A stretch of 48,884 bases of DNA from a virus. Lineage: Duplodnaviria > Caudoviricetes. Where the stretch lies: the IMG/VR virus record IMGVR_UViG_3300044210_000049, positions 1 through 48,884 of that record; one strand, 5' to 3'. The notes under the pieces were generated by a model, which had not been told where the DNA came from, did no database searches, and was given only the letters and a program-made list of their open reading frames with translations. This document shows positions 1 through 48,884 of this stretch, in pieces (the stretch's first letter is position 1; each line of letters opens with the position of its first letter). Both the position numbers and the translations under genes were made by a program.

Positions 1-127
1 GTATGCCCGCGCCTATGCTTTCCCGCATTTTGTCATACGGTTGTTAGAGGCTGTAACCGTGCGCTCTCCTGATTCTGCGCGGAAATTTTACCAGCCACTA
101 AACGGATCAACTTTTCCAAGGTGTTCT
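1..127. repeat. Terminal direct repeat, copy 1 (circular assembly overlap)
   Basis: Identical to 48758-48884; cuts through a cassette and the ORF 33..368. Confidence 0.95.
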
Positions 128-368
128 TAGGACTATTTTCACCAGGGCCATTTTCAGCAATCATACATTCTTCGACCTCCGGATTTTCGTCAGGGTCAGC
201 ACCTTCCGGATAAGAATAAAAGACAACTTTTGAATAATCATGAGGCATACATTCACAAGTTAATACTTGCCCTTTTGACAGTTCGACAACTTCGTCAGAA
301 AGCTCAACTGATGTTTCTTCTTTGCTGCCATGTGGATGAACGAACTGAATTAACTTGACTATACCCAC
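33..368 (-). CDS. Cassette A hypothetical protein
   Basis: 111 aa ORF, GTG start with AGGAGG RBS, stop falls inside the attC-like site. Confidence 0.8.
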   Translation of the reverse strand: MGIVKLIQFVHPHGSKEETSVELSDEVVELSKGQVLTCECMPHDYSKVVFYSYPEGADPDENPEVEECMIAENGPGENSPKNTLEKLIRLVAGKISAQNQESARLQPLTTV

Positions 369-420
369 TGCTACCTCCTTTATTTTTCCGCGCCTATTTA
401 TATGGCCGCACGGTTATTGC

Positions 421-566
421 CTCTAACGTTTCACAAAGCGCGAAGTTGCCGCGCCCACCTTGATACAACAGAAAGATTCATTGGAGCACTGCCGTTTTTG
501 ACGGTGACAATCTCACGCTCCATGGCTGCGGCAATTTGGGCGATAGCCGCGCTTTGTGTGTTGGCT
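421..566 (-). other. attC-like site of cassette B (long, with coding loop)
   Basis: ctctAAC-gttt-cacaaagcgcg ... cgcgctttgtg-t-GTTggct. Confidence 0.8.
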
Positions 567-778
567 GACGTTTTGCCAGCTACAATAATTTTCTTTCGGC
601 TGGCGATTTTGTGAAGCTCCAATGTAGCAACGGCGGCGGCCTTGTAACACACACGCTGAAGCACCTTGTCGTCAGGACGGCACGTTTTGCGGAACGCATC
701 ACCCATATCATCCCAAACCGCCTCCTCCACCGTTACGAAAAACTCAGGATACCGTTTGCGAACATCTGATACTCTCAT
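431..778 (-). CDS. Cassette B hypothetical protein, C-terminus encoded in the attC loop
   Basis: 115 aa ORF with GAGGAGG RBS. Confidence 0.8.
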   Translation of the reverse strand: MRVSDVRKRYPEFFVTVEEAVWDDMGDAFRKTCRPDDKVLQRVCYKAAAVATLELHKIASRKKIIVAGKTSANTQSAAIAQIAAAMEREIVTVKNGSAPMNLSVVSRWARQLRAL

Positions 779-837
779 CTTTTCCTCCTCGCCAGCCGAA
801 CTATAAATTCAAAGCTGGCAAAATGTGTGAAACGAAC

Positions 838-985
838 AGCCAACGGTTGACCAATGGCGACGTTACCGCCCTATATTATGCCACGCACAGAACACGGATG
901 TAGGTTCTGCATCGTCGTAACAACCAGTGATGAGGCATCTGGGCGGTAATGTGGCTTCAGCCCCTGCGCCATTGGTTTGTTGTGG
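838..985 (-). other. attC-like site of cassette C (long, with coding loop)
   Basis: agccAAC-ggttg-accaatggcg ... cgccattggt-tt-GTTgtgg. Confidence 0.8.
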
Positions 986-1072
986 GATGTGCTGCGCTGA
1001 CTCCTTAGTGTCCTGCGCGGCCTCTCCCATATCGAGAATAACGTCACGATCATCCTCACAATATTCGTCCAT
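863..1072 (-). CDS. Cassette C small protein with Cys/His tail
   Basis: 69 aa, GGAGG RBS; tail CLITGC...FCAWH lies in the attC loop. Confidence 0.7.
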   Translation of the reverse strand: MDEYCEDDRDVILDMGEAAQDTKESAQHIPQQTNGAGAEATLPPRCLITGCYDDAEPTSVFCAWHNIGR

Positions 1073-1128
1073 GATGAACCTCCGATTTAAGTGCCGTGCC
1101 TATCTGTAAAGACTCAGCGCAGCATTTC

Positions 1129-1190
1129 GTACAACGTTTCACGCACGTGCGATGCGCGGCTTTGCGCGTTTTGCACTGCGTGTGTTGTGC
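1129..1190 (-). other. attC-like site of cassette D
   Basis: gtacAAC-gttt-cacgcacgtgc ... gcactgcgtg-t-GTTgtgc. Confidence 0.85.
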
Positions 1191-1390
1191 GATGATTTTG
1201 CCACCTCCACGTTTTCAGATGGCGGCATTGGTAGTGACACCACCGTATACCCTTCGTCAGTTACAATACTCATAAAGCCAAAATCAAAGCGATACCCTAC
1301 CGTAAATAGAGGGTGTTCCGATACAACAACGCGCATGGCTTTGTTATACGGCGAACTTTCTGGAACCCACTGAACTACTATTGTCTTCAT
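1139..1390 (-). CDS. Cassette D hypothetical protein
   Basis: 83 aa, AGGAGG RBS. Confidence 0.8.
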   Translation of the reverse strand: MKTIVVQWVPESSPYNKAMRVVVSEHPLFTVGYRFDFGFMSIVTDEGYTVVSLPMPPSENVEVAKSSHNTRSAKRAKPRIARA

Positions 1391-1426
1391 GCCGCCCTCC
1401 TATAAATTCAAAGTGGCAAAATTTTC

Positions 1427-1501
1427 GCACAACGTGTTAGTATGGTGCTGTGGTACAACCGCATTGATGCCTAACCCATTGCATCCATACGGTTGTTGGT
1501 G
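1427..1501 (-). other. attC-like site of cassette E
   Basis: gcacAAC-gtgtta-gtatggtgc ... gcatccatac-ggtt-GTTggtg; 1436-1498 is identical to 48015-48077. Confidence 0.85.
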
Positions 1502-1538
1502 GCCTGTAAATCAAGCCTCCATAATTTCCTCCCAGGCG

Positions 1539-1901
1539 TTAAAACTGCCCCTCACCGAAACGGTCACCCCGATCATCGTCATAATCGTATTGTCTTGCGG
1601 CGGTAAATTCCGCATCTTCCAGCGCCTTGACTGTACCTTTTTGACGAGATGTCCAGTCGTCGGGAGAAAGTTTTTTTATTTCTTCAACTTCCATTCGAAG
1701 CGAAGGAAGCGAGCACTCGGCATTACTTCGTTTAGCGGCTTCGGACTTTGCAATCTTGTACTGCCGTACCGCTTCGTCTGCAAGGCGCTGCGCGGCCTTC
1801 CGCATTTCGTTTACCGCCGCCGGGGTTGATGCTTCGTTGGAGAGAGATACTTCAAAATGGCAGTAATCGAACGATAACATTATTTTTACGCTTGCACTCA
1901 T
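1539..1901 (-). CDS. Cassette E hypothetical protein (first cassette)
   Basis: 120 aa ORF with AAGGA RBS. Confidence 0.8.
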   Translation of the reverse strand: MSASVKIMLSFDYCHFEVSLSNEASTPAAVNEMRKAAQRLADEAVRQYKIAKSEAAKRSNAECSLPSLRMEVEEIKKLSPDDWTSRQKGTVKALEDAEFTAARQYDYDDDRGDRFGEGQF

Positions 1902-1956
1902 AGAATTTTCCTTTTGTGGTCGCCTGGGCTATTTATACCCAAGCTTGGTTTATGGA

Positions 1957-1991
1957 CACCAACTATTATTGTATGAAATAGCTAATTCAAG
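1957..1991 (-). other. Candidate attI-like primary insertion site
   Basis: caccAAC core closes the arm of cassette E and is followed by tattatt-gtatg (like the AAC-N6-gtatg half-site of the A, E, G and J sites), with no palindromic partner; the array ends here. Confidence 0.5.
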
Positions 1992-2207
1992 CTATTTGTA
2001 AAACTCAGGATATAACTTCCTGAATTTTAATCCTCTACGATCAAACTCATTTAGCACTGCCTGTGTAACAAAGTAATTAAGGCTACCAGTATTTTTTAAT
2101 CGGCATCCCATTTTAATCGATTGGGCTTTTGCCGCTTCTATAATACATGGAGAAAGAACCACTGTTGTAGGTATTGGTTTGTGATATTCTTTGTTGTTGT
2201 TTTTCAT
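1992..2207 (-). CDS. Small hypothetical protein upstream of the array, possibly a DNA-binding protein
   Basis: 71 aa basic ORF; strand-helix-helix-like pattern (inference). Confidence 0.6.
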   Translation of the reverse strand: MKNNNKEYHKPIPTTVVLSPCIIEAAKAQSIKMGCRLKNTGSLNYFVTQAVLNEFDRRGLKFRKLYPEFYK

Positions 2208-2213
2208 ATACGT

Positions 2214-2246
2214 ATAATATAATACATAATTCGTAATGTGTGTAAA
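2214..2246 (-). promoter_or_regulatory. Putative sigma70-type promoter reading toward the cassette array
   Basis: Minus strand TTTACA-16 nt-TATTAT in an AT-rich intergenic stretch. Confidence 0.4.
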
Positions 2247-2422: not shown

Positions 2423-3190
2423 TCATATGATGTTTTTTTCTCTTTCTGTTAAAACCACCCCTGCCAATTTTTCGTATGCCTGCAAGTCCTTTTTTATATA
2501 AAACGATTTGTGATTATCTCTCATAAGTAAAACTACGTGCTGCAAAAATTTAGGCCAATCGACTTCGCTTTGCGTATGATTCAATTTACCTATCTTGTAG
2601 TGGTCGGTATATGCCAATGAATCCATGATGATACGGATAGATTCCTGATGGTCTATGACCGGCTCGATGCTTGCCCATGTCGAAATTCCTAAATTATGGA
2701 AGACCTTAAGCATATCAATTCTGCTTAATGGAACCGCTGCGTACGGTTCGTATTGAACAGCTCTATCAAGAGATTTAAAGGTTAGCGTTGCTCCAACTTT
2801 TATTCTATCTCCAAAATTACGTATTTGATTAATACATGAAAGCGCTCTAATACCGCCCTTGGTAAGTATGGATACTCTGCACCCAAAACCAAACAACAAT
2901 TCCAGTGCTTCTGCGGTAATATTATCGTAATTTGATTCGAATTGAGAAGGGAATGGATCTCCGATAAATGACAAGAAAATTTCTTTACCTTTATATTCGC
3001 CGGTTTTTAGGTCTTTATATAAACGATCAATAGCATTCTTCTTAGCTATTGCCGGTTGAAAAAATTCCTCCTTAGGTTTGTACATGTTACAATATCCATA
3101 TGTACATCCATGAGGACATGTTTCGTATAGATTCAACGCGTATTCCCCGTACTCTTTTGCTCGCCCCTTGGGCTTGTAGATGATGCTCAT
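2423..3190 (-). CDS. Radical SAM protein (spore photoproduct lyase-like)
   Basis: IIYKPKGRAKEY...LNLYETCPHGCTYGYC, GDPF, ILTKG, WASIEP motifs. Confidence 0.85.
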   Translation of the reverse strand: MSIIYKPKGRAKEYGEYALNLYETCPHGCTYGYCNMYKPKEEFFQPAIAKKNAIDRLYKDLKTGEYKGKEIFLSFIGDPFPSQFESNYDNITAEALELLFGFGCRVSILTKGGIRALSCINQIRNFGDRIKVGATLTFKSLDRAVQYEPYAAVPLSRIDMLKVFHNLGISTWASIEPVIDHQESIRIIMDSLAYTDHYKIGKLNHTQSEVDWPKFLQHVVLLMRDNHKSFYIKKDLQAYEKLAGVVLTEREKNII

Positions 3191-9431: not shown

Positions 9432-9869
9432 TCATTGTTTGTCCTTAGAACGAAGTAGAGTTATTCGATCATTAATCTGTTTACTCATATTATCAATACA
9501 CCGTTCAAATTGATTAATTCCTGCCGGCAAATCGATACTTTCCAGGAAAGCAATTTCTTCGCTGTGGTTGGCAGGTGGCTTTTGATCTTCCGCCGTTTTT
9601 AGCGAGCATTCTTTACAAAGCTCCTTCATGAATCCTATATTTCCGTTAGGCCAAGGATGACTGGAAATTGGGTTACGATTTCCCATTGGGTTACGATTTC
9701 CCATATCGTAATTTAATTCCGCATCATAGAAAGTTTTTTCACCACAATCATCGCTTTGATCTTCCACAATTTTTGACGCAATTTTTTCTTTCAGTTGTTT
9801 CCAAGTAGAAATATCCATTGCGTCACCGAATTGATATACTAACGACTCGATATGCTCTAAATGTGTCAT
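9432..9869 (-). CDS. Hypothetical protein with a cassette-derived C-terminus
   Basis: 145 aa; tail EEIAFLE...QINDRITLLRS resembles cassette O tail DEIAWLE...KINDRIAQLRA. Confidence 0.75.
   Translation of the reverse strand: MTHLEHIESLVYQFGDAMDISTWKQLKEKIASKIVEDQSDDCGEKTFYDAELNYDMGNRNPMGNRNPISSHPWPNGNIGFMKELCKECSLKTAEDQKPPANHSEEIAFLESIDLPAGINQFERCIDNMSKQINDRITLLRSKDKQ
9669..9704. repeat. 18 bp tandem duplication (MGNRNP x2)
   Basis: tgggttacgatttcccat twice, in frame. Confidence 0.85.
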
Positions 9870-9953: not shown

Positions 9954-10259
9954 TCAATACTGGTTCGGCCGGTGGTTAATATTTATTCCCCCGGACCCGT
10001 CCCCGTACCCGGCTCCGGACCCGTCCCCGTCCCCGTCCCCGTCCCCGGACCCGTCCCCGGACCCGGCCCCGTCCCCGGACCCGGCCCCGTACCCGGACCC
10101 GTCCCCGTACCCGGACCCGTCCCCGGACCCGGCCCCGTACCCGGACCCGTACCCGGACCCGGACCCGTCCCCGGACCCGGCCCCGTACCCGGACCCGTAC
10201 CCGGACCCGGCCCCGTCCCCGTCCCAGGATATAATAATATTTTCTTTTATGATCTCCAT
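9954..10259 (-). CDS. Gly-rich G(D/S/Y/A) repeat protein
   Basis: 6 bp-unit low-complexity tract at ~9990-10225; commonly paired with the upstream gene in phages. Confidence 0.75.
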
Positions 10260-10537
10260 TCCGGGACCGCCTTAATAGAAGCAATAGCAGTTTTTGTGCA
10301 TGGAATTATTTCTATTGCCTCGGTTAACTTTATTGATGGTATTGTAACTGAAAATTTGCATTCGTTTGGACATTTTACTCCACACAAAGCAAGTTCTGAC
10401 AATGAAGCCGCTCCTTTCCAATACCAAATGCGCCGAGTGTTTTTTAAAATAACTTCTTTACATTTTTGAGATACTAATGTTCCTGAATGTACCCCGGCTG
10501 AATAAGTTCTTACAATTACATACTCTGATTTTTTCAC
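10247..10537 (-). CDS. DUF6948-like phage protein
   Basis: [14 protein letters not shown]...[16 protein letters not shown]. Confidence 0.85.
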
Positions 10538-11270: not shown

Positions 11271-13229
11271 TTACTCCTTTGCCGCCGCCGCGTCGAGTTC
11301 GGCGTTTAATTTTTGGTCGGAAGATATTTTTTTTAATGGTTTTTTAACAAGCGTAGCCATTATTGATTCGTAATTTTTTTCCGGGATATCGGTAAGAACT
11401 TTTATTGTTTCGTCTTTTAAAAGACCACGATAAAACTTTAAAATAGAATCAACGCTTGCGCCTTCTCGTTTTGCAATTTCCTCTAAAATGTTAGAAGTTT
11501 GATTGGTAGAAATTAAAAGCACGTCGGAGTTTTTAGGTTCTTTTTCTTCGGTAATGTTAATGACTTTATTTTCAAGGAAAAGAATATCTTCCTTGTCCTC
11601 TCTGACTTCCGGAAGTTCGAGCATGCTTTTTGTCGGATCAATAAGGGCAAATTTTTGTAAATCGGAAAGAGGGAAATCCATATTGATATGCAGAATATAG
11701 TGTTTCGATTTTTTCCCTTCGTAAGTAATTTCTTGCTCTCTGCGCTCCAATTTTAACGGGATCATGTGAACGCGACCGCAAATAGCCTTGATATATTCAA
11801 GGCAAGAATTTATGTTTACAATAGAATGAAATGAACCGGTAACTATTTCCCATACGCCAGCCCCTTTTAATTCCGGCAAAAGGATAGAAAGCGCTGCGGA
11901 TTCTGAGCATTTTTTTTGCTGATAAAATGGACAATCCTGTCCTTTGCAATTTACTCGTACTCCTCCCATTTCGGATGCCCCAAGCACTTCGAGGCTGGCC
12001 GCATGCTCTTGTGATATACATACTGCTTCTATCCCATCTCCCTTGCAGCGCAATACTCCATTAGCGTATCGTTTGTAAAATTGAGGAAAGAAAATAGACG
12101 GGTCTGGAAGCGGGAACATTATTCGAATCTGTTTGGGTTTTTCCCCGTATAGTTTTTCGTATTCTGAAATAAGGTTTTTGTTTTCCAACTCGGAAGGTGT
12201 TTTCGGATCAAGTTTGAAATAGTCTATTTCTGCCGGATATTCAACTCCTTTCGATGAAACTTTTTTAATTCCAAGGCGAATTTTTCCAAGCCTCGGAAGC
12301 CTTCTTATTTCCGACAATCCTTTAATCATTTCTTCCTCGCTTTGTTTTTGAGTTTTTAAATATTTTCCATAAGAACAAAATTCAGCAACCGCGCAAAAGC
12401 GCGCGCATTTAAGTCCTTCCCAGTTTTCGAGTCTATCACAGGTCGGAGGCGCGGTCATAGTTTTTAAAGCGCTTAAAAGGGCTTCCCGCTTCATTTTGAA
12501 ATAATCCAATACTTCTTGATCCGTAATAATTTTCAAGTTGAAGTAATAAACGTTTCTGAAAATTCCCCGGCTTCTCGCAATGAATGTTCCTCCATCCCGA
12601 ACGCAACATTGTATTTTCAGGTGATTTATTTTTTTCCCTAAACGTTTTTCCGCTTCGATTCGATATTTATTTAATTGCAGTTCCCATTCCCATCGGTCTT
12701 CATATTTTTGATCTCTGACAAGCTCTTTTATGGTTTTCTTCTCACCTTTTCGCTTTCCGCTTTTAAAAACTTCATCGGTTTCTTTTTCGATGACTTTAAA
12801 ACCGAGTGCCTTGGCAACTTTGTAGGAGCCGGAAGTTTTGTAGTCGATCATGTCAATTTGGCCATTTTCGATCTCTATCACATCGGAAATTCCGGTTTCA
12901 TCGGTGTCGTCTCCGTCGAATTTTTCTTCGAGAAAAGAGAGTTCATCTTCCGAACCTTCCAAAACAGCATGACCTTTTGTACCATGTAACATAAAAGCTC
13001 GGGAATCCGGACTTATAGAATATTCTTTTGTTAAGATTAAGAATGCTTCGAGTGTCCCGCGTATTAATTGGGTAGTAGATGGCTTTCCGGTCCATATTCT
13101 TTCTCTCGAAGCGAGTCTCAAATAGGAGCGAGTCGCGCAACGTTCACCCATTCGGCAGCCGCCCTCTTTCAAGCAGTCGTCTATTTCTATTTTATCGTTG
13201 TCTGGACATATAAAATATTTTAATGGCAT
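11271..13229 (-). CDS. Fusion: Cas4-like PD-(D/E)XK nuclease plus Gp3-like (recombination directionality factor family) domain
   Basis: N-half has GISD...IDYKTSG, QLNKY and a Cys cluster (CARFCAVAEFC); C-half has RRLPRLGKIRLG...CKGDG...GVWEIVTGSFHS. Confidence 0.75.
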   Translation of the reverse strand: MPLKYFICPDNDKIEIDDCLKEGGCRMGERCATRSYLRLASRERIWTGKPSTTQLIRGTLEAFLILTKEYSISPDSRAFMLHGTKGHAVLEGSEDELSFLEEKFDGDDTDETGISDVIEIENGQIDMIDYKTSGSYKVAKALGFKVIEKETDEVFKSGKRKGEKKTIKELVRDQKYEDRWEWELQLNKYRIEAEKRLGKKINHLKIQCCVRDGGTFIARSRGIFRNVYYFNLKIITDQEVLDYFKMKREALLSALKTMTAPPTCDRLENWEGLKCARFCAVAEFCSYGKYLKTQKQSEEEMIKGLSEIRRLPRLGKIRLGIKKVSSKGVEYPAEIDYFKLDPKTPSELENKNLISEYEKLYGEKPKQIRIMFPLPDPSIFFPQFYKRYANGVLRCKGDGIEAVCISQEHAASLEVLGASEMGGVRVNCKGQDCPFYQQKKCSESAALSILLPELKGAGVWEIVTGSFHSIVNINSCLEYIKAICGRVHMIPLKLERREQEITYEGKKSKHYILHINMDFPLSDLQKFALIDPTKSMLELPEVREDKEDILFLENKVINITEEKEPKNSDVLLISTNQTSNILEEIAKREGASVDSILKFYRGLLKDETIKVLTDIPEKNYESIMATLVKKPLKKISSDQKLNAELDAAAAKE

Positions 13230-13453
13230 AAATTATTTTCCATTTAAAAACATTCTCCCGGCTCTCGCGCTCCGCTATTGCACGTAGCGGCGTTTGACGG
13301 AATGGAACCGGCTCGCCGGGAGAGTGTTCGGTTAAAAATAACCCGCCCATGCAGACCTTGCGAGAATGCATTTACATCCCTGACGGGATAAGACGGGTTT
13401 GGTTTTGGGATTTCGCAAGGTCATAAGTAATATAGTTGATTTAATGTGTGATG

Positions 13454-42916: not shown

Positions 42917-44797
42917 ATGAATAAAATACTGTTTTTTATATTGGCAATTTATACATTTTCTTTTTCCTCCGCACCATCATTTGCGTATGAAAAGCAATCG
43001 GTGACTATCAATATGATTAAAAAAATTCAACCTTCGTATTTTTGCAGGATGATGAAAACGACGATGGATTCCTTATCAAATTCCAATAGTTACGAGCACA
43101 ATATCCGTTTTTATAATGGTGTTTATTACTTTTTTTATGAATATGGAAATGAGCAATATGCATGCACGACCACCATTTTAGATAGCCTTCCGGTTGAAAT
43201 AACAAAACGGACATATGTAATACGAACGACGGATGACAAACATGTGGGGAGTTACCCTAATGCGTTTTACGATTCTTCATATCATCGATGGAACATGTTT
43301 TCAGCGGCATATGTTAATCCTCAATGGTATGGTGTGCATTCTGTTTCCACGTCATGGAAGGGGCCGTATACAGTACTCGATACCTTTGATTCCAATGTCG
43401 CCGATATGAATTGGATAAAATATAAAAATAAAATGATTGGTATATCCAATTGTCCGAACAGTAACTTTTATTCTCGCGTTTACAAAAGTGATGTTCTTGG
43501 AAAACCGTATTCCGTTTATCCAAAGCCTTTTTTTCCATCATATCAGGCTTTCGATTCAACCATGTATTCTTACTATAGGATACAGGGAGACGATGGTCTT
43601 TTTTGGCATAATAACAGACTATATTTTACTTTTTTTCCTAAAAATTCCCTGGCCGGAGGAGAGGGATATCTTTCCGAAGGTATCGCATTGACAGAAATAG
43701 ACACTTCAACATTTAAAGCAAAATATCCGCCATATTTAATACATTTAAAAACGTCCAGCGGTTCGCCATCGTTTATTCCTGACAACACTGAAAGAATATT
43801 ATATCGTAATGTAGGTATTTTAGGAATTCTTTCTCCTGATAATTCTTATGCTCTGCGAAATCATAAAGATTTATTCCGTTTAAATTTGGCTACAGGAATG
43901 GATTCCGCAATTGGACTTCCGGCACATTTTAGCAGGGCTATTATTCCTTCAGGCGGTGGTGAGGCATGGTACTCAGATAGTGGATATGTGAAATCTGCGG
44001 TTAGTACAAATGGACTGTATGGTTTTATGTCTCAGTCTCGGTTCTGGGGTGTATATATCAATATAAAAATAAAATTCTGGTCTATTCCTGCTGCTGCTAA
44101 TTATAGAGTTTTATTTGCAATTGCGGACGACGATCCATATGTCGGAACTCCGGTAATAGCAGTCCTACAACATGGTGCTAATTTACTATGGAGTATTGGA
44201 AGTGGAACAACTTCAGATTTCGGAGAGGACAACGTTGTATCTTCATTAACAACAGGCGTTGAATATGATTTTAAAATAAAACGAATACAGGATACGGTAA
44301 AGTTGCTTAAAAATGACGTTGTTTTATCTAAAAAATACTTTGCTTTAGCAGATAGTTTTTCAAAGGGAAGCAGTTCGTATTTTGAATGGAGGCTTGGGAC
44401 GCGTGAAGGGGCTCAAATGGCCAGTCCGTACCCATATCCGTCATTCCAAGGGAAAGTGAGTCGGTTTTATGCGAATATCGATTCCGTATCTCTTTCTCCT
44501 CAATTGGATTATGATACCATTGTCACATCTAATTTCACCATCGATACCGTAGTTTCTTCCGGAGGCGCCATCGATAGTTTCTCTGCCTCCGGCGTACCGC
44601 TCGGTATGTGGGTTGATCGGATCACCGGGAAGCTCTCTGGAACTCCGCTGGATACCGGGCACTGGACGGTAATAACTACAGGGTATAATACGGATGGAAA
44701 CGGATTGGATACTGTTTTAATTAATTCTTTTTGGGGGTCAGGATCAAATTTAAAGAAATATCGACGCTTTAGGTTTGGTAATGGGTTTGGATTCTAA
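42917..44797 (+). CDS. Secreted multi-domain protein (propeller-like, ConA/LamG-like and Ig-like domains)
   Basis: Signal peptide; SASGVPLGMWVDRITGKLSGTP Ig-type motif; FQGKVSRF LamG-like end. Confidence 0.7.
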   Translation: MNKILFFILAIYTFSFSSAPSFAYEKQSVTINMIKKIQPSYFCRMMKTTMDSLSNSNSYEHNIRFYNGVYYFFYEYGNEQYACTTTILDSLPVEITKRTYVIRTTDDKHVGSYPNAFYDSSYHRWNMFSAAYVNPQWYGVHSVSTSWKGPYTVLDTFDSNVADMNWIKYKNKMIGISNCPNSNFYSRVYKSDVLGKPYSVYPKPFFPSYQAFDSTMYSYYRIQGDDGLFWHNNRLYFTFFPKNSLAGGEGYLSEGIALTEIDTSTFKAKYPPYLIHLKTSSGSPSFIPDNTERILYRNVGILGILSPDNSYALRNHKDLFRLNLATGMDSAIGLPAHFSRAIIPSGGGEAWYSDSGYVKSAVSTNGLYGFMSQSRFWGVYINIKIKFWSIPAAANYRVLFAIADDDPYVGTPVIAVLQHGANLLWSIGSGTTSDFGEDNVVSSLTTGVEYDFKIKRIQDTVKLLKNDVVLSKKYFALADSFSKGSSSYFEWRLGTREGAQMASPYPYPSFQGKVSRFYANIDSVSLSPQLDYDTIVTSNFTIDTVVSSGGAIDSFSASGVPLGMWVDRITGKLSGTPLDTGHWTVITTGYNTDGNGLDTVLINSFWGSGSNLKKYRRFRFGNGFGF

Positions 44798-44848
44798 CGA
44801 TGCAACGATGCAAATAACCGGTCCTCCGGTTAATTTGCGTTGTTGGTC
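44792..44848 (-). other. Terminal attC-like hairpin, possibly also a convergent terminator
   Basis: ttctAAC..caacgatgcaaataaccgg-tcct-ccggttaatttgcgtt-GTTggtc, where the two transcription directions meet. Confidence 0.55.
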
Positions 44849-44864
44849 GGCTGCACGAAGTCCG

Positions 44865-44942
44865 CTATCTTTTTAATCCCCAAATCATAAACGCAAACGC
44901 AAAGCATACTCCAACTATTGCAAAAGCTGTCGGCCAGTCCAT
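44865..44942 (-). CDS. 25 aa membrane peptide
   Basis: MDWPTAFAIVGVCFAFAFMIWGLKR with AAGGA RBS. Confidence 0.55.
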   Translation of the reverse strand: MDWPTAFAIVGVCFAFAFMIWGLKR

Positions 44943-44964
44943 AATTAATCCTTTTTTAATTTAC

Positions 44965-45210
44965 TTATTTTACTTTCGGCCATGGTGATTCGCCTTTAGG
45001 CTTAATTAATGAATATCCATCATCATCACTATGGCACTCACAAATATTAACACTATATTTATACGCAATCTTTTTGCACTTGTTTTTACGCTTATTTGAA
45101 TAATAACTGCAACCATTATTAACGCATATTTCCATCGGTCCCGATATTTTTGTGGCTATTGTTTGCTGGTTTTGCGGATTCAATTTATTACGCATAGCAT
45201 TTTCTTCCAT
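44965..45210 (-). CDS. Cys-rich hypothetical protein in the degenerate array tail
   Basis: 81 aa; crosses a degenerate site near 45120-45170. Confidence 0.55.
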   Translation of the reverse strand: MEENAMRNKLNPQNQQTIATKISGPMEICVNNGCSYYSNKRKNKCKKIAYKYSVNICECHSDDDGYSLIKPKGESPWPKVK

Positions 45211-45365
45211 TCTATTATTAAAAATGGTGAAGGCTTCCTACAGTTTACAACCCTACACATTGCGCAGGATTTCTCGTTTTTTACTGCACGGATCCCGGTG
45301 AGATCACGGGCCTGTGTAGACCGCGTTTCATTGATTACATCCATATAAAAGCCTTCACCATGTCC

Positions 45366-45519
45366 AGCCAAAGTTCACCGCATTGCGCGAAGTTGCGCTA
45401 TTCGATCATTTATCTTTTGTTTAATAAAAAAATATGAGTTACGGGTATTATTACAATTGACATCGGTGTCTTTTAGTACCGTTTCCAGCCAAGCAATTTC
45501 GTCGCTGCGGTTGTTATGC
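45366..45519 (-). other. attC-like site of cassette O (core mutated AAC to AAA)
   Basis: agccAAA-gttc-accgcattgcgcgaagttgc ... gcaatttcgtcgctgcggt-t-GTTatgc. Confidence 0.7.
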
Positions 45520-45635
45520 GAATGTTTTGACGCATCCGCAATGTTCCTTGAAAATGGATTCTCAAATGTTTTTGGAGAAACCCAAACTTCATTATCCGGT
45601 ACAAGGCTATTTGCTATCAAAAACTTCTCATCCAT
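45375..45635 (-). CDS. Cassette O protein
   Basis: MDEKFLIA start with GGAG RBS; tail lies in the attC loop. Confidence 0.75.
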   Translation of the reverse strand: MDEKFLIANSLVPDNEVWVSPKTFENPFSRNIADASKHSHNNRSDEIAWLETVLKDTDVNCNNTRNSYFFIKQKINDRIAQLRAMR

Positions 45636-45668
45636 TTTCAACTCCAATATAAGAGCGGTAAAACTTTT

Positions 45669-45723
45669 GTATAACTGATCGCAAATTGGCGGTCGTTTTA
45701 ATGCTACACTTTCGCTGTTATAC
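45669..45723 (-). other. attC-like site of cassette N
   Basis: gtatAAC...GTTatac, 55 bp, weak inner stem. Confidence 0.65.
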
Positions 45724-45859
45724 GAAGTTTGTCGGTCTTCCTTAATTTACTGCCACCAATGAATTTACATTTTTTAAATTTACACTTAGTATGAAAAACT
45801 CCGGCACCAACTGAAATAAGATTTATGTACTTGCAAAAAAAACATTTTCTTATTTTCAC
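45704..45859 (-). CDS. Cassette N small Cys-rich basic protein
   Basis: GTG start after AAGGA; CFFC...CKFKKC. Confidence 0.6.
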   Translation of the reverse strand: MKIRKCFFCKYINLISVGAGVFHTKCKFKKCKFIGGSKLRKTDKLRITAKV

Positions 45860-45899
45860 TTTTATTCCTTTAGGCGGCCTATAATAACGTGCTTTTGAC

Positions 45900-45978
45900 C
45901 GCCAACGTATTGCGGTACGCATGAAGTAAAGTACGACTGCATACCGCTTACCTTTATTTTATGCTGCCGCTGTTAAAT
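45900..45978 (-). other. attC-like site of cassette M
   Basis: cgccAAC-gtatt-gcggtacgcatgaagtaaag ... ctttattttatgctgccgc-t-GTTaaat. Confidence 0.8.
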
Positions 45979-46204
45979 GCTGTTTAGGCAACATCCTTTT
46001 ATCTGCGGGCGGACCGTAACAAATGTTTATTGCTTTAATAAGACAATTAACGCAAAGATCGCCACCATTTATGATTCCGTTTGTTCCTGACATAATCTCA
46101 AAATTTACACCAGTATTTTCTACCATGGGACAGCCACGCAAGCGATTCGATGTTACCGATTTTTCTACTTCGCTCCCGCAAGCGTCGCAATAATGTTTAA
46201 TCAT
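45959..46204 (-). CDS. Cassette M zinc-finger-like protein
   Basis: YCDACG...DLCVNC, AAGGAG RBS. Confidence 0.8.
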   Translation of the reverse strand: MIKHYCDACGSEVEKSVTSNRLRGCPMVENTGVNFEIMSGTNGIINGGDLCVNCLIKAINICYGPPADKRMLPKQHLTAAA

Positions 46205-46249
46205 TTTAAGCTCCTTGCCGCCCGCCTATTTATATGGTCGAAGCGGCAT

Positions 46250-46412
46250 TGAAAACGTTTGATAAATGGAGAAGTGCGCGGCGGTTCCGTAGTGCGCTTC
46301 GTGCTGATTAACAGCACTTCCCGGCTATACACGGTACCATAATTCCGGTATGCAATTGCCGCGCATTTTGCTTCACCATTCATTTATGCTGCCAGACATT
46401 TATTTGTTAGAT
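46250..46412 (-). other. attC-like site of cassette L (long)
   Basis: tgaaAAC-gtttg-ataaatg..gtgcgcggc ... gccgcgcat...catttat-tt-GTTagat. Confidence 0.7.
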
Positions 46413-46492
46413 GCCGTTGAAAAGGGCTTCCATAATGTAAGCGCACGCCTTGCGACGGCCACCGATCTCACTGAAGCGCATACGCGGTTCAT
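46400..46492 (-). CDS. Cassette L 30 aa peptide (or non-coding cassette)
   Basis: GAGGAtaATG; MNRVCASVRSVAVARRALTLWKPFSTASNK. Confidence 0.35.
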   Translation of the reverse strand: MNRVCASVRSVAVARRALTLWKPFSTASNK

Positions 46493-46554
46493 TATCCTCG
46501 ATAGTTCTGACTTTATGGAAGCGCCTACTAACATAAAAGCCCTTTTCTATGGCA

Positions 46555-46695
46555 TTATAACGCCCGACAAAGGGCGAAGTTATTTCGATTTGTAACATTC
46601 AGGCTTACAGTTTTTTATATAGTCAATACAGTTAAAACAACGATTAGCACATGTTTCACGGGACGGAATAATTTCTCCCCTTTGCTCTGTTGTAG
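46555..46695 (-). other. attC-like site of cassette K (long, with coding loop)
   Basis: ttatAAC-gcccga-caaagggcgaagtta ... taatttctcccctttg-ctct-GTTgtag. Confidence 0.8.
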
Positions 46696-46876
46696 GTGCT
46701 ACACCCTCCAGAGTACGCCCCGCTGTTTCTGGTTGCGTTTCCAAAGTCTTTGCGGCTCGATTTTCCAACCACAAAACATACTTTAATGTGTGCCACGTAA
46801 GACCTTCCAATTGGTAAACTACATCTTCGCCAGTTTCGGTTTTATACAGTGTCATCAGTTTGTAATTTAGAGACAT
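46580..46876 (-). CDS. Cassette K protein with Cys-rich tail
   Basis: 98 aa. Confidence 0.75.
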   Translation of the reverse strand: MSLNYKLMTLYKTETGEDVVYQLEGLTWHTLKYVLWLENRAAKTLETQPETAGRTLEGVAPTTEQRGEIIPSRETCANRCFNCIDYIKNCKPECYKSK

Positions 46877-46919
46877 TCGAGCCGCCTATTTAATAATGGT
46901 TTTCGCAACCAGAAATTTA

Positions 46920-46996
46920 CTACAACGGGAAAGTATGTTGCTGTTTGGTACAACCGCATATCTACTTTCCCAAATGGAAACATACGGTTGTTGTGA
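46920..46996 (-). other. attC-like site of cassette J
   Basis: ctacAAC-gggaaa-gtatgtt..tttgg ... ccaaa..aacatac-ggtt-GTTgtga. Confidence 0.85.
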
Positions 46997-47033
46997 ACTG
47001 TAAACGCGCTTCCGCATTATGCTTTCGGCGCAT

Positions 47034-47165
47034 TTACTTTTTGTTGCTGCCGGGCTTGGTAAAACCGCGTCCCCCCAATTCTTTATCATTTTCTACCGCA
47101 CGGCGATAACCTTCTTGACGGGCTTCAAGACGCTTCTTTGATTTTGAAAGTTTGTTTCTGCTCAT
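47034..47165 (-). CDS. Cassette J 43 aa basic peptide (not in the ORF track)
   Basis: AAGGAG RBS; MSRNKLSKSKKRLEARQEGYRRAVENDKELGGRGFTKPGSNKK. Confidence 0.75.
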   Translation of the reverse strand: MSRNKLSKSKKRLEARQEGYRRAVENDKELGGRGFTKPGSNKK

Positions 47166-47217
47166 TTGATAACTCCTTTATGCGCCGAACTATTAAATTC
47201 AAAAGCGCGTTTATGGT

Positions 47218-47287
47218 TTATAACGTCCGACAAATGGAGAAGTTCCGCCTCGGAATTTAGCCTTGCGGCTCCATTTGTTTGTTAGGC
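47218..47287 (-). other. attC-like site of cassette I
   Basis: ttatAAC-gtccg-acaaatggag ... ctccatttgt-tt-GTTaggc. Confidence 0.85.
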
Positions 47288-47634
47288 GCTGAATTGACTG
47301 CTTCCACATTTCCCGCCGCTCCTTGTTTGAATATTGACGAAAGCATATTTATTTCACGGTCGTGAAGTTTTTTTATTTCTGCCTGCAAATCGTAAAAGTC
47401 CATTTTGGGGAGCCGGATTTTCTCGATACGATACCCAACGAGAGCAAGAAACGGTAACAAAACATCCATTGTAAAAATATGCTGGCTTACCCAGCTATGC
47501 CCGGCCATTTCTTTCATGCCAGCGCAATCCCTTTGCCACTCCCAAAGCAACTTAAAAAAATCCTTTGCATCATGGAAGTCTTTAAGAAAATCCGGCACTT
47601 GTTTCTCGTCATGAAGATATTGCTTAATGTCCAT
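47257..47634 (-). CDS. Cassette I hypothetical protein
   Basis: 125 aa, PDFLKDFHDAKDFFK motif. Confidence 0.8.
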   Translation of the reverse strand: MDIKQYLHDEKQVPDFLKDFHDAKDFFKLLWEWQRDCAGMKEMAGHSWVSQHIFTMDVLLPFLALVGYRIEKIRLPKMDFYDLQAEIKKLHDREINMLSSIFKQGAAGNVEAVNSAPNKQMEPQG

Positions 47635-47685
47635 AAGTAATTTTTTCCTGGCGCGGCCTACTCACATAAAAGCAGGCAATTTTGC

Positions 47686-47755
47686 GCATAACTTTGACCA
47701 AGTGCGAAGTGCTGTACTCAGCATTTAGGCTTCCGGCGCACTTGGTTTGTTGTTT
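47686..47755 (-). other. attC-like site of cassette H
   Basis: gcatAAC-tttg-accaagtgcg ... cgcacttggt-tt-GTTgttt. Confidence 0.85.
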
Positions 47756-47956
47756 TTAGTTGCTCGCCTTCCTTAATTCTCTGGCGGGCGTTATTTTTGC
47801 GACGGCTTCCACATTGACCTTGCGAATAAGATCATACTCTCCGACAAGGCGCTTTTCATCCAGAGTACATGCGTCAAAAGCTGATGGATGGGCGACCAAA
47901 TACTTTGTGTCGCCGTCCATTTCCTCGTATACGAAAATCTTTTTTGGTAAACTCAC
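47756..47956 (-). CDS. Cassette H hypothetical protein
   Basis: 66 aa, GTG start, AAGGAG RBS. Confidence 0.75.
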   Translation of the reverse strand: MSLPKKIFVYEEMDGDTKYLVAHPSAFDACTLDEKRLVGEYDLIRKVNVEAVAKITPARELRKASN

Positions 47957-48005
47957 TTTATTCTCCTTTTGTTATGCCCGCCCTATAAATTAAAAGGCGA
48001 GCAAT

Positions 48006-48080
48006 TGAAAACGGGTTAGTATGGTGCTGTGGTACAACCGCATTGATGCCTAACCCATTGCATCCATACGGTTGTTGTTT
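48006..48080 (-). other. attC-like site of cassette G
   Basis: Near-identical to the cassette E site at 1427-1501. Confidence 0.85.
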
Positions 48081-48329
48081 TTAGTTTGCCGGGCTTCCTT
48101 GATTTGCTTCCAGCGCGCTTAATACCCAAACGCGATAGCCCTTTTCTTCTTTACGTGTAGCCAATTTAAAGCCATATTTTCGCACGTTTCCGCAAACACT
48201 GTTCATTTCTTTTCTGCTACTAAAAAGGATAGAGTCCCCCGCAGTCATAGTTTTAAATGTTGGCATATACATCCCGTGGTTCCGAGGGGGAGGGATCGGA
48301 ACGCCCTTTTCGACAACTAAATTAGACAT
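48081..48329 (-). CDS. Cassette G hypothetical protein
   Basis: MSNLVVEKGVPIPP...MTAGDS...YRVW; AAAGG RBS. Confidence 0.8.
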   Translation of the reverse strand: MSNLVVEKGVPIPPPRNHGMYMPTFKTMTAGDSILFSSRKEMNSVCGNVRKYGFKLATRKEEKGYRVWVLSALEANQGSPAN

Positions 48330-48383
48330 AAGAACCTTTCTTTTGCGCCGGACTATCCATTCAACAGCCCGGCAAATTGAATA

Positions 48384-48513
48384 CAACAACGTCCGCGCTA
48401 TTGCGCTGCCCGCACATACCCCTTGCACTGCAACATAGTTACATAGCACTCTCCGTCGTTCGCACAGGTATCACAGTCGCGCTGTTCGGGTGGCGTGATA
48501 GCGCGTGTTGTGT
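48384..48513 (-). other. attC-like site of cassette F (long, with coding loop)
   Basis: caacAAC-gtc-cgcgctattgcgctgccc ... gggtggcgtgatagcgcg-t-GTTgtgt. Confidence 0.85.
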
Positions 48514-48688
48514 GCTGTTCCGGTTTTGCTTCCACAGCTCCCAGAGCGGCGTTATTTGTTATGGCAACCAAATCCACTTTAACACCGCCGGGGACATTGC
48601 CAAAACTATTACCATGCATAATTTCCTTTGGAACACTAAACGTCAACGTACATTCCTCGAAATCGAACGAGTGCATTTTTAATTTCAT
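48398..48688 (-). CDS. Cassette F protein with Cys-rich tail
   Basis: 96 aa, AGGAG RBS. Confidence 0.8.
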   Translation of the reverse strand: MKLKMHSFDFEECTLTFSVPKEIMHGNSFGNVPGGVKVDLVAITNNAALGAVEAKPEQHTTRAITPPEQRDCDTCANDGECYVTMLQCKGYVRAAQ

Positions 48689-48729
48689 ACGCCGCTCCTA
48701 TAATAAAATGTTTTCAAAACCGGAATTGC

Positions 48730-48806
48730 AACCAACGGAGAAGTATGGCGAAGTGCGGTATGCCCGCGCCTATGCTTTCCCGCATTTTGTCATACGGTTG
48801 TTAGAG
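48730..48806 (-). other. attC-like site of cassette A (spans the circular join)
   Basis: aaccAAC-ggagaa-gtatggcgaagtgcgg ... ccgcattttgtcatac-ggtt-GTTagag. Confidence 0.85.
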
Positions 48807-48884
48807 GCTGTAACCGTGCGCTCTCCTGATTCTGCGCGGAAATTTTACCAGCCACTAAACGGATCAACTTTTCCAAGGTGTTCT
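48758..48884. repeat. Terminal direct repeat, copy 2
   Basis: Identical to 1-127. Confidence 0.95.

Follow-up and report, generated by a model that had tools for sequence, protein, structure and literature searches.

A phage-borne array of long-armed, integron-like cassettes and a candidate Xer-like host recombinase without the I2 insertion

Described cassette systems and the present locus

The closest described system is the integron. In the available sections of the attC literature, an integron cassette is a gene with its downstream site, the first cassette follows a non-hairpin junction (attI), the sites carry AAC and GTT cores with inverse-core complementarity, and they fold as the bottom strand (PMC5027507); all of these features are shared by the array described here. 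Canonical attC sites have, in addition, extrahelical bases on the arm opposite AAC (Nivina, 2016; PMC5027507, in the part available). Integron integrases (IntI) are held to require the I2 helix both for acting on folded single-stranded sites and for avoiding a harmful second exchange. According to the accessible portion of Escudero (2020; PMC7790495), I2 is where the extrahelical bases are docked, and it also hinders the second strand exchange; an Xer-like ancestor is imagined in the portion available of Escudero (2016). Simple tyrosine recombinases of an integron subgroup with a poorly conserved insertion have been reported (Smyshlyaev, 2021; PMC8138268), though the accessible text gives no sites, cassettes or function for the insertion-less members. 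Fibrobacter does not occur in the accessible text of Ghaly (2021).

Phage-borne CALINs (Qi, 2023; PMC9892861, in the sections available) share with the present locus co-oriented small-gene cassettes, attC-like hairpins and the lack of an integron integrase in the phage, and they too are presumed to depend on an enzyme that the host supplies in trans. Their sites, however, were found by canonical attC models and recombined with IntI1, and those sections mention neither long own-matched arms nor a non-IntI recombinase, nor an attI-like first junction for virulent phages (PMC9892861). The supplement lists 17 CALINs, and arrays like the present one may be among them (PMC9892861).

The locus has the arrangement of a CALIN (at least two attC-like sites, no integrase nearby), but its sites lack the canonical extrahelical bases, and the intI gene with an I2 insertion that stands beside the array in a complete integron is absent from the phage. 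The two ends of a unit pair over about 45 nt, as against 7 in integrons, and the hairpins have spacers of 6-8 and 3-4 nt with no extrahelical base opposite AAC (compared with the available part of PMC5027507). The recombinase associated with such arrays is without I2 and has the same orientation as the cassettes, and hairpins are exchanged between bodies (compared with the available part of PMC7790495). The system works like an integron but departs from one in two defining features, extrahelical bases and I2. It is best read, from sequence comparison, as an integron-like system with a recombinase of its own, which phages would use in trans. In the literature covered, with most subscription papers lying outside its scope, no account was found of long-armed cassettes that go with an I2-less recombinase. 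A natural cassette system run by I2-less enzymes would, if true, be a direct test of integron origin, and canonical attC models may overlook such arrays in phages and Fibrobacterota.

The phage genome and its array

The window (the whole stretch of 48,884 nt that was analyzed) holds a complete, circular phage genome (48,757 bp; terminal repeat of 127 nt). The plus strand carries the genes for terminase, portal, capsid and tape measure, the minus strand those for replication. The array is on the minus strand, running from 1963 down to 1, over the circular junction and onward to about 44,800. It comprises 15 units, in the order E, D, C, B, A, F-O, followed by a tail that has decayed. Each unit is laid out as GTT, 5' arm, gene, 3' arm, AAC and hairpin. 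In array order, the features are:

2216-2246, minus strand: sigma-70-like promoter match, a possible Pc equivalent, preceding both the array and the small gene 1992-2207
1961-1995, minus strand: attI-like first junction, a small dyad followed by TAG|TT; unit E has no hairpin site on its upstream side
1431-1963, minus strand: cassette E; body 1963-1495, ORF 1901-1539 (120 aa), hairpin 1497-1431
1133-1433, minus strand: cassette D; body 1433-1184, hairpin 1186-1133; ORF 1390-1139 reads through the hairpin
842-1135, minus strand: cassette C; body 1135-979, 140-nt hairpin 981-842
425-844, minus strand: cassette B; body 844-560, ORF 778-431, 138-nt hairpin 562-425
1-427, minus strand: cassette A; body 427-43, ORF 368-33, hairpin from 45 over the circular junction to 48734
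48758-48884, plus strand: terminal repeat, copy of bases 1-127; the array spans the circular junction
48734-48802, plus strand: cassette A hairpin, as it appears in the copy within the terminal repeat; plus is here the bottom strand
48388-48736, minus strand: cassette F; body 48736-48507, hairpin 48509-48388
48010-48390, minus strand: cassette G; body 48390-48074, hairpin 48076-48010
47690-48012, minus strand: cassette H; body 48012-47749, hairpin 47751-47690
47222-47692, minus strand: cassette I; body 47692-47281, ORF 47634-47257 (phrog_15705), hairpin 47283-47222
46924-47224, minus strand: cassette J; body 47224-46990, hairpin 46992-46924
46559-46926, minus strand: cassette K; body 46926-46689, its 3' arm longer by about 27 nt inserted within it, hairpin 46691-46559
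46254-46561, minus strand: cassette L; body 46561-46406, hairpin 46408-46254; no convincing ORF of its own
45904-46256, minus strand: cassette M; body 46256-45972, hairpin 45974-45904
45675-45906, minus strand: unit N, decayed; 3' end at 45685 (core AAT) or about 45717
45370-45675, minus strand: cassette O; body 45675-45513, ORF 45635-45375; far core of the hairpin is TTT
44800-45372, minus strand: decayed distal end of the array; the closing hairpin 44804-44844 adjoins the stop of the converging gene 42917-44797

The promoter match agrees at 10 of 12 positions, the count of such matches in the region being not above that in shuffles, and its region is 77% identical in a related phage contig (L108). 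At the other extreme of the array, no clean own-arm pair was found in 44800-45372. The 5' core of H is short by one GTT triplet when set against its own 3' arm and against a low-depth variant (position 48012), while G has one GTT triplet extra compared with the matching frame in another phage array, L080 (position 48390); both differences are consistent with crossovers out of register at tandem GTT.

No tyrosine recombinase was found in the phage by PHROGs on 70 ORFs or by PF00589 in six frames, and a profile of the candidate host recombinases described below found none among 605 window frames (best E 1.5). PF00589 likewise has no match in the 13 phage records, this phage included, that bear arrays of the same type, 7 of which are at least 90% complete. 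Rfam had no match in the window, PADLOC matched none of 14 cassette proteins, and Pfam and PHROGs named no cassette protein except that of I (phrog_15705, function unknown). Close relatives of the array-flanking genes were not found in viral contigs, homologs of the capsid reach 54% at most and gave no host, and cassette I as a query recovered no locus.

Some further features were noted in passing. A fixed gene upstream of the array (2423-3190) has a weak Radical_SAM match, and an apparent radical-SAM-type gene, its frame read by eye, is carried as a cassette in L108 (2150-3090). ORF 9954-10270 contains a tandem repeat of 6-nt units encoding a Gly-X run. A solitary AAC...GTT hairpin, which the site model does not recognize, lies at 13249-13333, upstream of the gene 11271-13229.

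Pairing between the ends of a unit

A preliminary description of this DNA had proposed that the 3' core of each cassette matches its own 5' core and not that of its neighbor. The five pairs that it cited are all exact reverse complements: 43-51 with 419-427 in A, 560 with 837-844 in B, 1184 with 1425-1433 in D, GTTGGTG (1495) with CACCAAC (1957-1963) in E, and GTTGTAG (46689) with CTACAAC (46920-46926) in K. The core that A faces across its hairpin is, as had been said, a different one, GCAACCAAC at 48728-48736, beyond the circular junction. In the comparison of own against other cores that had been suggested as a check, own matches at core positions 4-7 number 42 against a permutation mean of 21.4 (15 units, 100,000 permutations; p<1e-5), and for the 14 units with a defined neighbor 39/56 of these positions match the own core and 16/56 the faced core. 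The preference is array-wide, but the five cited units are the best cases of 15; the exact core match is longer with the own core in nine units, tied in four (H, I, M, N) and shorter in two (F, J).

What had been missed is that the pairing of unit ends extends over about 45 nt, beyond the cores. With 50-nt arms, the own unit is the best partner in 14/15 units, and in 13/15 when the first 10 nt are removed; the one miss with the full 50-nt arms (bottom strand) is unit N, whose boundaries are doubtful. Because the unit boundaries in the window were set partly from the arms, two boundary-independent checks were run. A scan of the whole minus strand, with 1469 GTT...AAC candidates, placed its top 7 all within the array. 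Of 28 consecutive site pairs set by the hairpin model alone in other genomes, 27 favor the own partner over the faced one, the means being -26.6 kcal/mol for own and -10.3 kcal/mol for faced. Canonical IntI cassettes from the same bacterial order as the host loci described below have an own-core match of 7-9 nt. Own-core matching alone is ordinary integron behavior; the unusual part is the long arms past the cores, together with a non-canonical hairpin geometry.

Arm grammar and hairpin geometry

The grammar of the arms was read from 78 curated units, 68 of which align near-ungapped. For this set, 19 of 84 calls outside the window were discarded as probably false, being isolated, mis-paired or on the wrong strand, and within the window 13 curated units took the place of 10 automatic ones; since the set was selected on arm energy, the finding that 77/78 units prefer the circular over the array arrangement carries no evidential weight. 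In the 68 aligned units, own arms are paired at positions 1-9 and mismatched at 10, and pairing resumes at positions 12-21 in free sequence, where it is Watson-Crick in 60-67 of the 68 units at each position. Position 11 is A/G in 60/68, equivalent to a T.G wobble on the bottom strand. Wobbles at positions 8-9 also favor the bottom strand over the top, by 21 to 1. Hairpins fold better on the bottom strand in 51/78 units, a weak bias (mean -19.2 vs -18.0 kcal/mol, p=5e-4); for whole arms the two strands do not differ (bottom better in 46/78, p=0.09).

The hairpin itself retains part of the attC design. AAC and GTT cores face each other across it in 30/30 aligned sites, which were picked for that feature, and 74/78 hairpins end in C-GTT. 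The RYYYAAC/GTTRRRY consensus is partly kept, with a purine at position 4 in nearly all and T at position 5 in 36/78. The first 8-9 stem pairs are contiguous, with no extrahelical base opposite AAC in this first stem; the spacer measures 6-8 nt on the AAC arm vs 3-4 nt on the other, and the extra bases, as read from the alignment, sit on the AAC arm. In the inner stem, 8/9 pairs change on both sides and 90% are paired, a score reached by 0/500 shuffles, the structure having been drawn from the same sequences as were tested. Separately, a TATAG/AATAG-like motif occurs at positions 23-55 of the 5' arm in 44/78 units vs 14% in the background, and is perhaps a promoter element or a protein site.

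The outer part of the arms behaves differently, as wobbles at positions 24-26 favor the top strand over the bottom by 58 to 7. This would suit a model in which the arms work as RNA, either as processing stems or by occluding the ribosome site with the genes looped out, and phage homologous recombination shuffles the units at their short conserved ends. The outer arm stem often lies over the ribosome site or start codon, ORFs run through the 3' core into the hairpin in 45/62 phage units (0/16 host units), and the phage encodes an exonuclease and a Gp3-like protein. Such a model is nevertheless very improbable, since the invariant GTT/AAC cores, the position-11 wobble and the hairpin bias indicate the antisense DNA strand, host units of several genes and up to 7.3 kb keep the same arms, and it would leave unexplained why such sites are linked with a recombinase gene and with an AG|TT junction (see below).

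Movement of units and exchange of hairpins

Two sequence patterns recovered 11 and 3 viral stretches and 14 genome stretches. No array was seen in three of the 11 viral matches (L003, L008, L010), and among the 14 genome contigs array sites were present in L014 and L015 only, the other 12 being without a match to the model.

Cassette A recurs in L108, of which L109 is a duplicate, and the two copies of the cassette in phage and window are 93% identical across 454 nt. The match runs from the C before GTT (window 428), through the gene and the downstream hairpin, to GTTGG (48732); the neighbors differ on both sides, and the cassette is second in the array there and fifth in the window. The claim that units were inserted separately is thereby borne out, cassette A being found whole among other neighbors, and it gains further from the first unit, which follows a non-hairpin junction (TAG|TT), as against the C-GTT endings of nearly all hairpins. 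The alternative of ordinary genes with terminators was rejected: the hairpins lack U tracts, of which no excess was found, the cores are invariant and a whole unit has moved. Of the claim that a circular cassette is opened between G and TT, the placing of the crossover at GTT stands, and the exact G|TT cut is taken over from IntI biochemistry. The recombination footprint that the preliminary description saw in the cores is present, but it is larger than the core, and the hairpin does not always move with the unit.

This last point comes from homologs whose match spans GTT to AAC only, namely that of E in L115, that of B in L117 (where the two cores of the homolog match each other poorly) and the pair L069-L087. 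Body and hairpin identities are 0.94 and 0.90 for A, 0.78 and 0.58 for E, 0.81 and 0.59 for B, and 0.81 and 0.54 for L069-L087, against a background of 0.56. The unit is thus gene plus downstream site in one of four homologous bodies (A), the one close homolog in which the hairpin is seen to travel with its unit, and the other three carry other hairpins. That three homologous units (78-81%) have unrelated hairpins implies that hairpins are swapped too. Conversely, five of six hairpin pairs that are at least 80% alike have unrelated 3' arms; among them are the hairpins of E and G, identical at 67/68 positions. In L080 and L084, hairpins that share 94-97% identity with that of J follow unrelated units. 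Arms also recur around different genes, those of F in L113 and those of G and I in L005/L080. At three cores (45974, 47748 and 48012), low-depth contigs from one run cease to follow the window; these contigs are short (sides of 24-36 nt), may come from the source sample, and bear on units other than A-E.

The idea that hairpins never travel with their unit was rejected on account of cassette A in L108. The whole transfer of A, the body-only homologs and the recurring arms together suggest that cassettes move whole, and that hairpins and genes are exchanged within arm frames over longer times.

First junctions and host recombinases

One of the pattern matches, L015, is from a Chitinivibrionales genome and directed attention to this order, in which the hairpin model has matches in 16/81 genomes. 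At one such locus (L070), a tyrosine recombinase gene is followed by TAG|TT and then by a 2.9-kb own-armed cassette with the same type of hairpin. Recombinases of this kind were collected by a split match to TIGR02249, and not by neighborhood. They keep the catalytic motifs, lack the IntI insertion of about 40 residues (I2), score below the TIGR02249 cut-off and are co-oriented with the cassettes. An AG|TT..AAT junction lies 58-176 nt downstream of 13/16 insert-less recombinases, as against 75/702 background windows (11%), and is absent behind the other 3; the test covered 16 of 22 recombinase loci, six others having been missed by the motif search. At the 13 junctions, an own-arm first unit with hairpin follows in 6, an arm whose hairpin is cut off in 1, 4 end too soon and 2 are ambiguous. 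Two loci outside the 16 (L096, L106) also have AG|TT first units.

The TAG|TT ending of the first junction is common to the window, L080, L069, L015 and L108. Judged by its position, the AG|TT junction appears attI-like in the window, in 4 other phage arrays and at 13/16 host loci. A strong dyad (z below -3.5) stands just before AG|TT at 7/13 host junctions (L070, L071, L088, L090, L093, L095, L097) and at 1964-2023 in the window, the other 6 host junctions being without one; the insertion target may fold too. Host units differ from phage units in length (median 1503 vs 237 nt). The phage host may belong to this order; against that, one phage protein searched against the 81 Chitinivibrionales genomes gave no match. 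A phage-like contig with several separate arrays, on both strands, is found in a Chitinivibrionales genome (L069, G080:C332). The hairpin model also matches 2/41 genomes of an archaeal order (L014/L079 in G012, and G127), where the sites could be mis-binned phage contigs or reflect a wider host range. As a side observation, cassettes of L070, L015 and L080 contain, in their translated frames, DNA methyltransferase-like or restriction-modification-like genes.

True IntI is encoded by 18/81 genomes of the order, so that the host's standard integrase could act on the long-armed sites and the array could be an ordinary CALIN of canonical attC cassettes, its arms a quirk of the lineage. The GTT/AAC cores, the co-oriented genes, the bottom-strand bias and the transfer of a whole cassette with its downstream hairpin would all be expected of such an array. 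In the available literature, moreover, IntI1 recombined 5/6 phage attC sites (PMC9892861), and some attC sites recombine even without extrahelical bases (PMC5027507). This explanation is improbable in light of the IntI loci themselves: the hairpin model has no match in 12 of them, which reach about 1.5 kb from intI, and in the four loci examined the cassettes have no long arms, pairing over 7-9 nt only and at 2-4/10 of positions 12-21. The long-armed sites follow a different, co-oriented recombinase.

REP/RAYT or IS91-type HUH transposases act at a tetranucleotide plus a hairpin. A likeness to REP elements is raised by G[TGA]AG, which 53/78 units have between -32 and -18 of the 3' arm, vs 14% in the background; GTAG, GGAG or GAAG, just outside the 12-21 stem, would be the foot for a single-strand transposase that mobilizes the units. 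Some host arrays (L075, L104) have genes for IS91-like transposases nearby. Yet the gene before the first junction is a tyrosine recombinase at 13/16 loci, homology between units ends at GTT/AAC, four HUH-like tripeptides in window frames are linked to no such enzyme, and no HUH transposase was identified among window ORFs and frames. There is accordingly very little to be said for a HUH enzyme, the least probable of the mechanisms weighed.

A proposed mechanism

The array was probably built cassette by cassette, with circles inserted at AG|TT by a Xer-like, I2-less tyrosine recombinase that the host would supply in trans. The enzyme is predicted to work on folded single-stranded sites. When a cassette is excised as a circle, its arms and its hairpin would combine into one long bottom-strand hairpin, the preferred substrate, the long arms completing the binding duplex only in this form. 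After cleavage at G|TT, the circle would enter the array at the AG|TT junction and shift older cassettes outward; displaced from the junction, these would be the ones to decay, as is seen at the distal end.

Since I2 blocks the second strand exchange in IntI, an I2-less enzyme would sometimes finish both exchanges. Between two folded sites, this would swap the hairpin tips and leave the arm-gene-arm bodies intact, which fits the body-only homologs. The swap by second strand exchange is the weakest step, and we lean slightly away from it; the body-only pattern could also arise from crossovers on the top strand or from homologous recombination in the phage. A point against the proposed mechanism is that it leaves unexplained how an I2-less enzyme avoids linearizing its target during insertion.

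A broader view, tentative and rather unlikely, is that the system is a living proto-integron, run by Xer-like recombinases that never gained I2 and from within which IntI arose. The long arms would then provide the duplex that is needed, and full two-strand exchange would shuffle hairpins between cassettes; arm frames would be reloaded with new genes, and integrase-less phages would be cassette factories that exploit the host enzyme. A tree of 35 rows (one of them a spurious frame) places one group of insert-less enzymes beside IntI with support of 91/85, which is only a lead.

How cassettes are made may be approached through the genes themselves. A phage contig (L116) has a 44% homolog of the E gene without arms or hairpin around it, so that this gene family exists outside cassettes; together with the same arms around unrelated genes, this offers a handle on cassette formation. 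The C-terminal part of the cassette O ORF (45388-45513, within the hairpin) has a paralog outside the array, in ORF 9432-9869 (9451-9570), with 37% identity over 43 aa and DNA repeats as well; hairpin sequence may here have turned into ordinary coding sequence, or the reverse.
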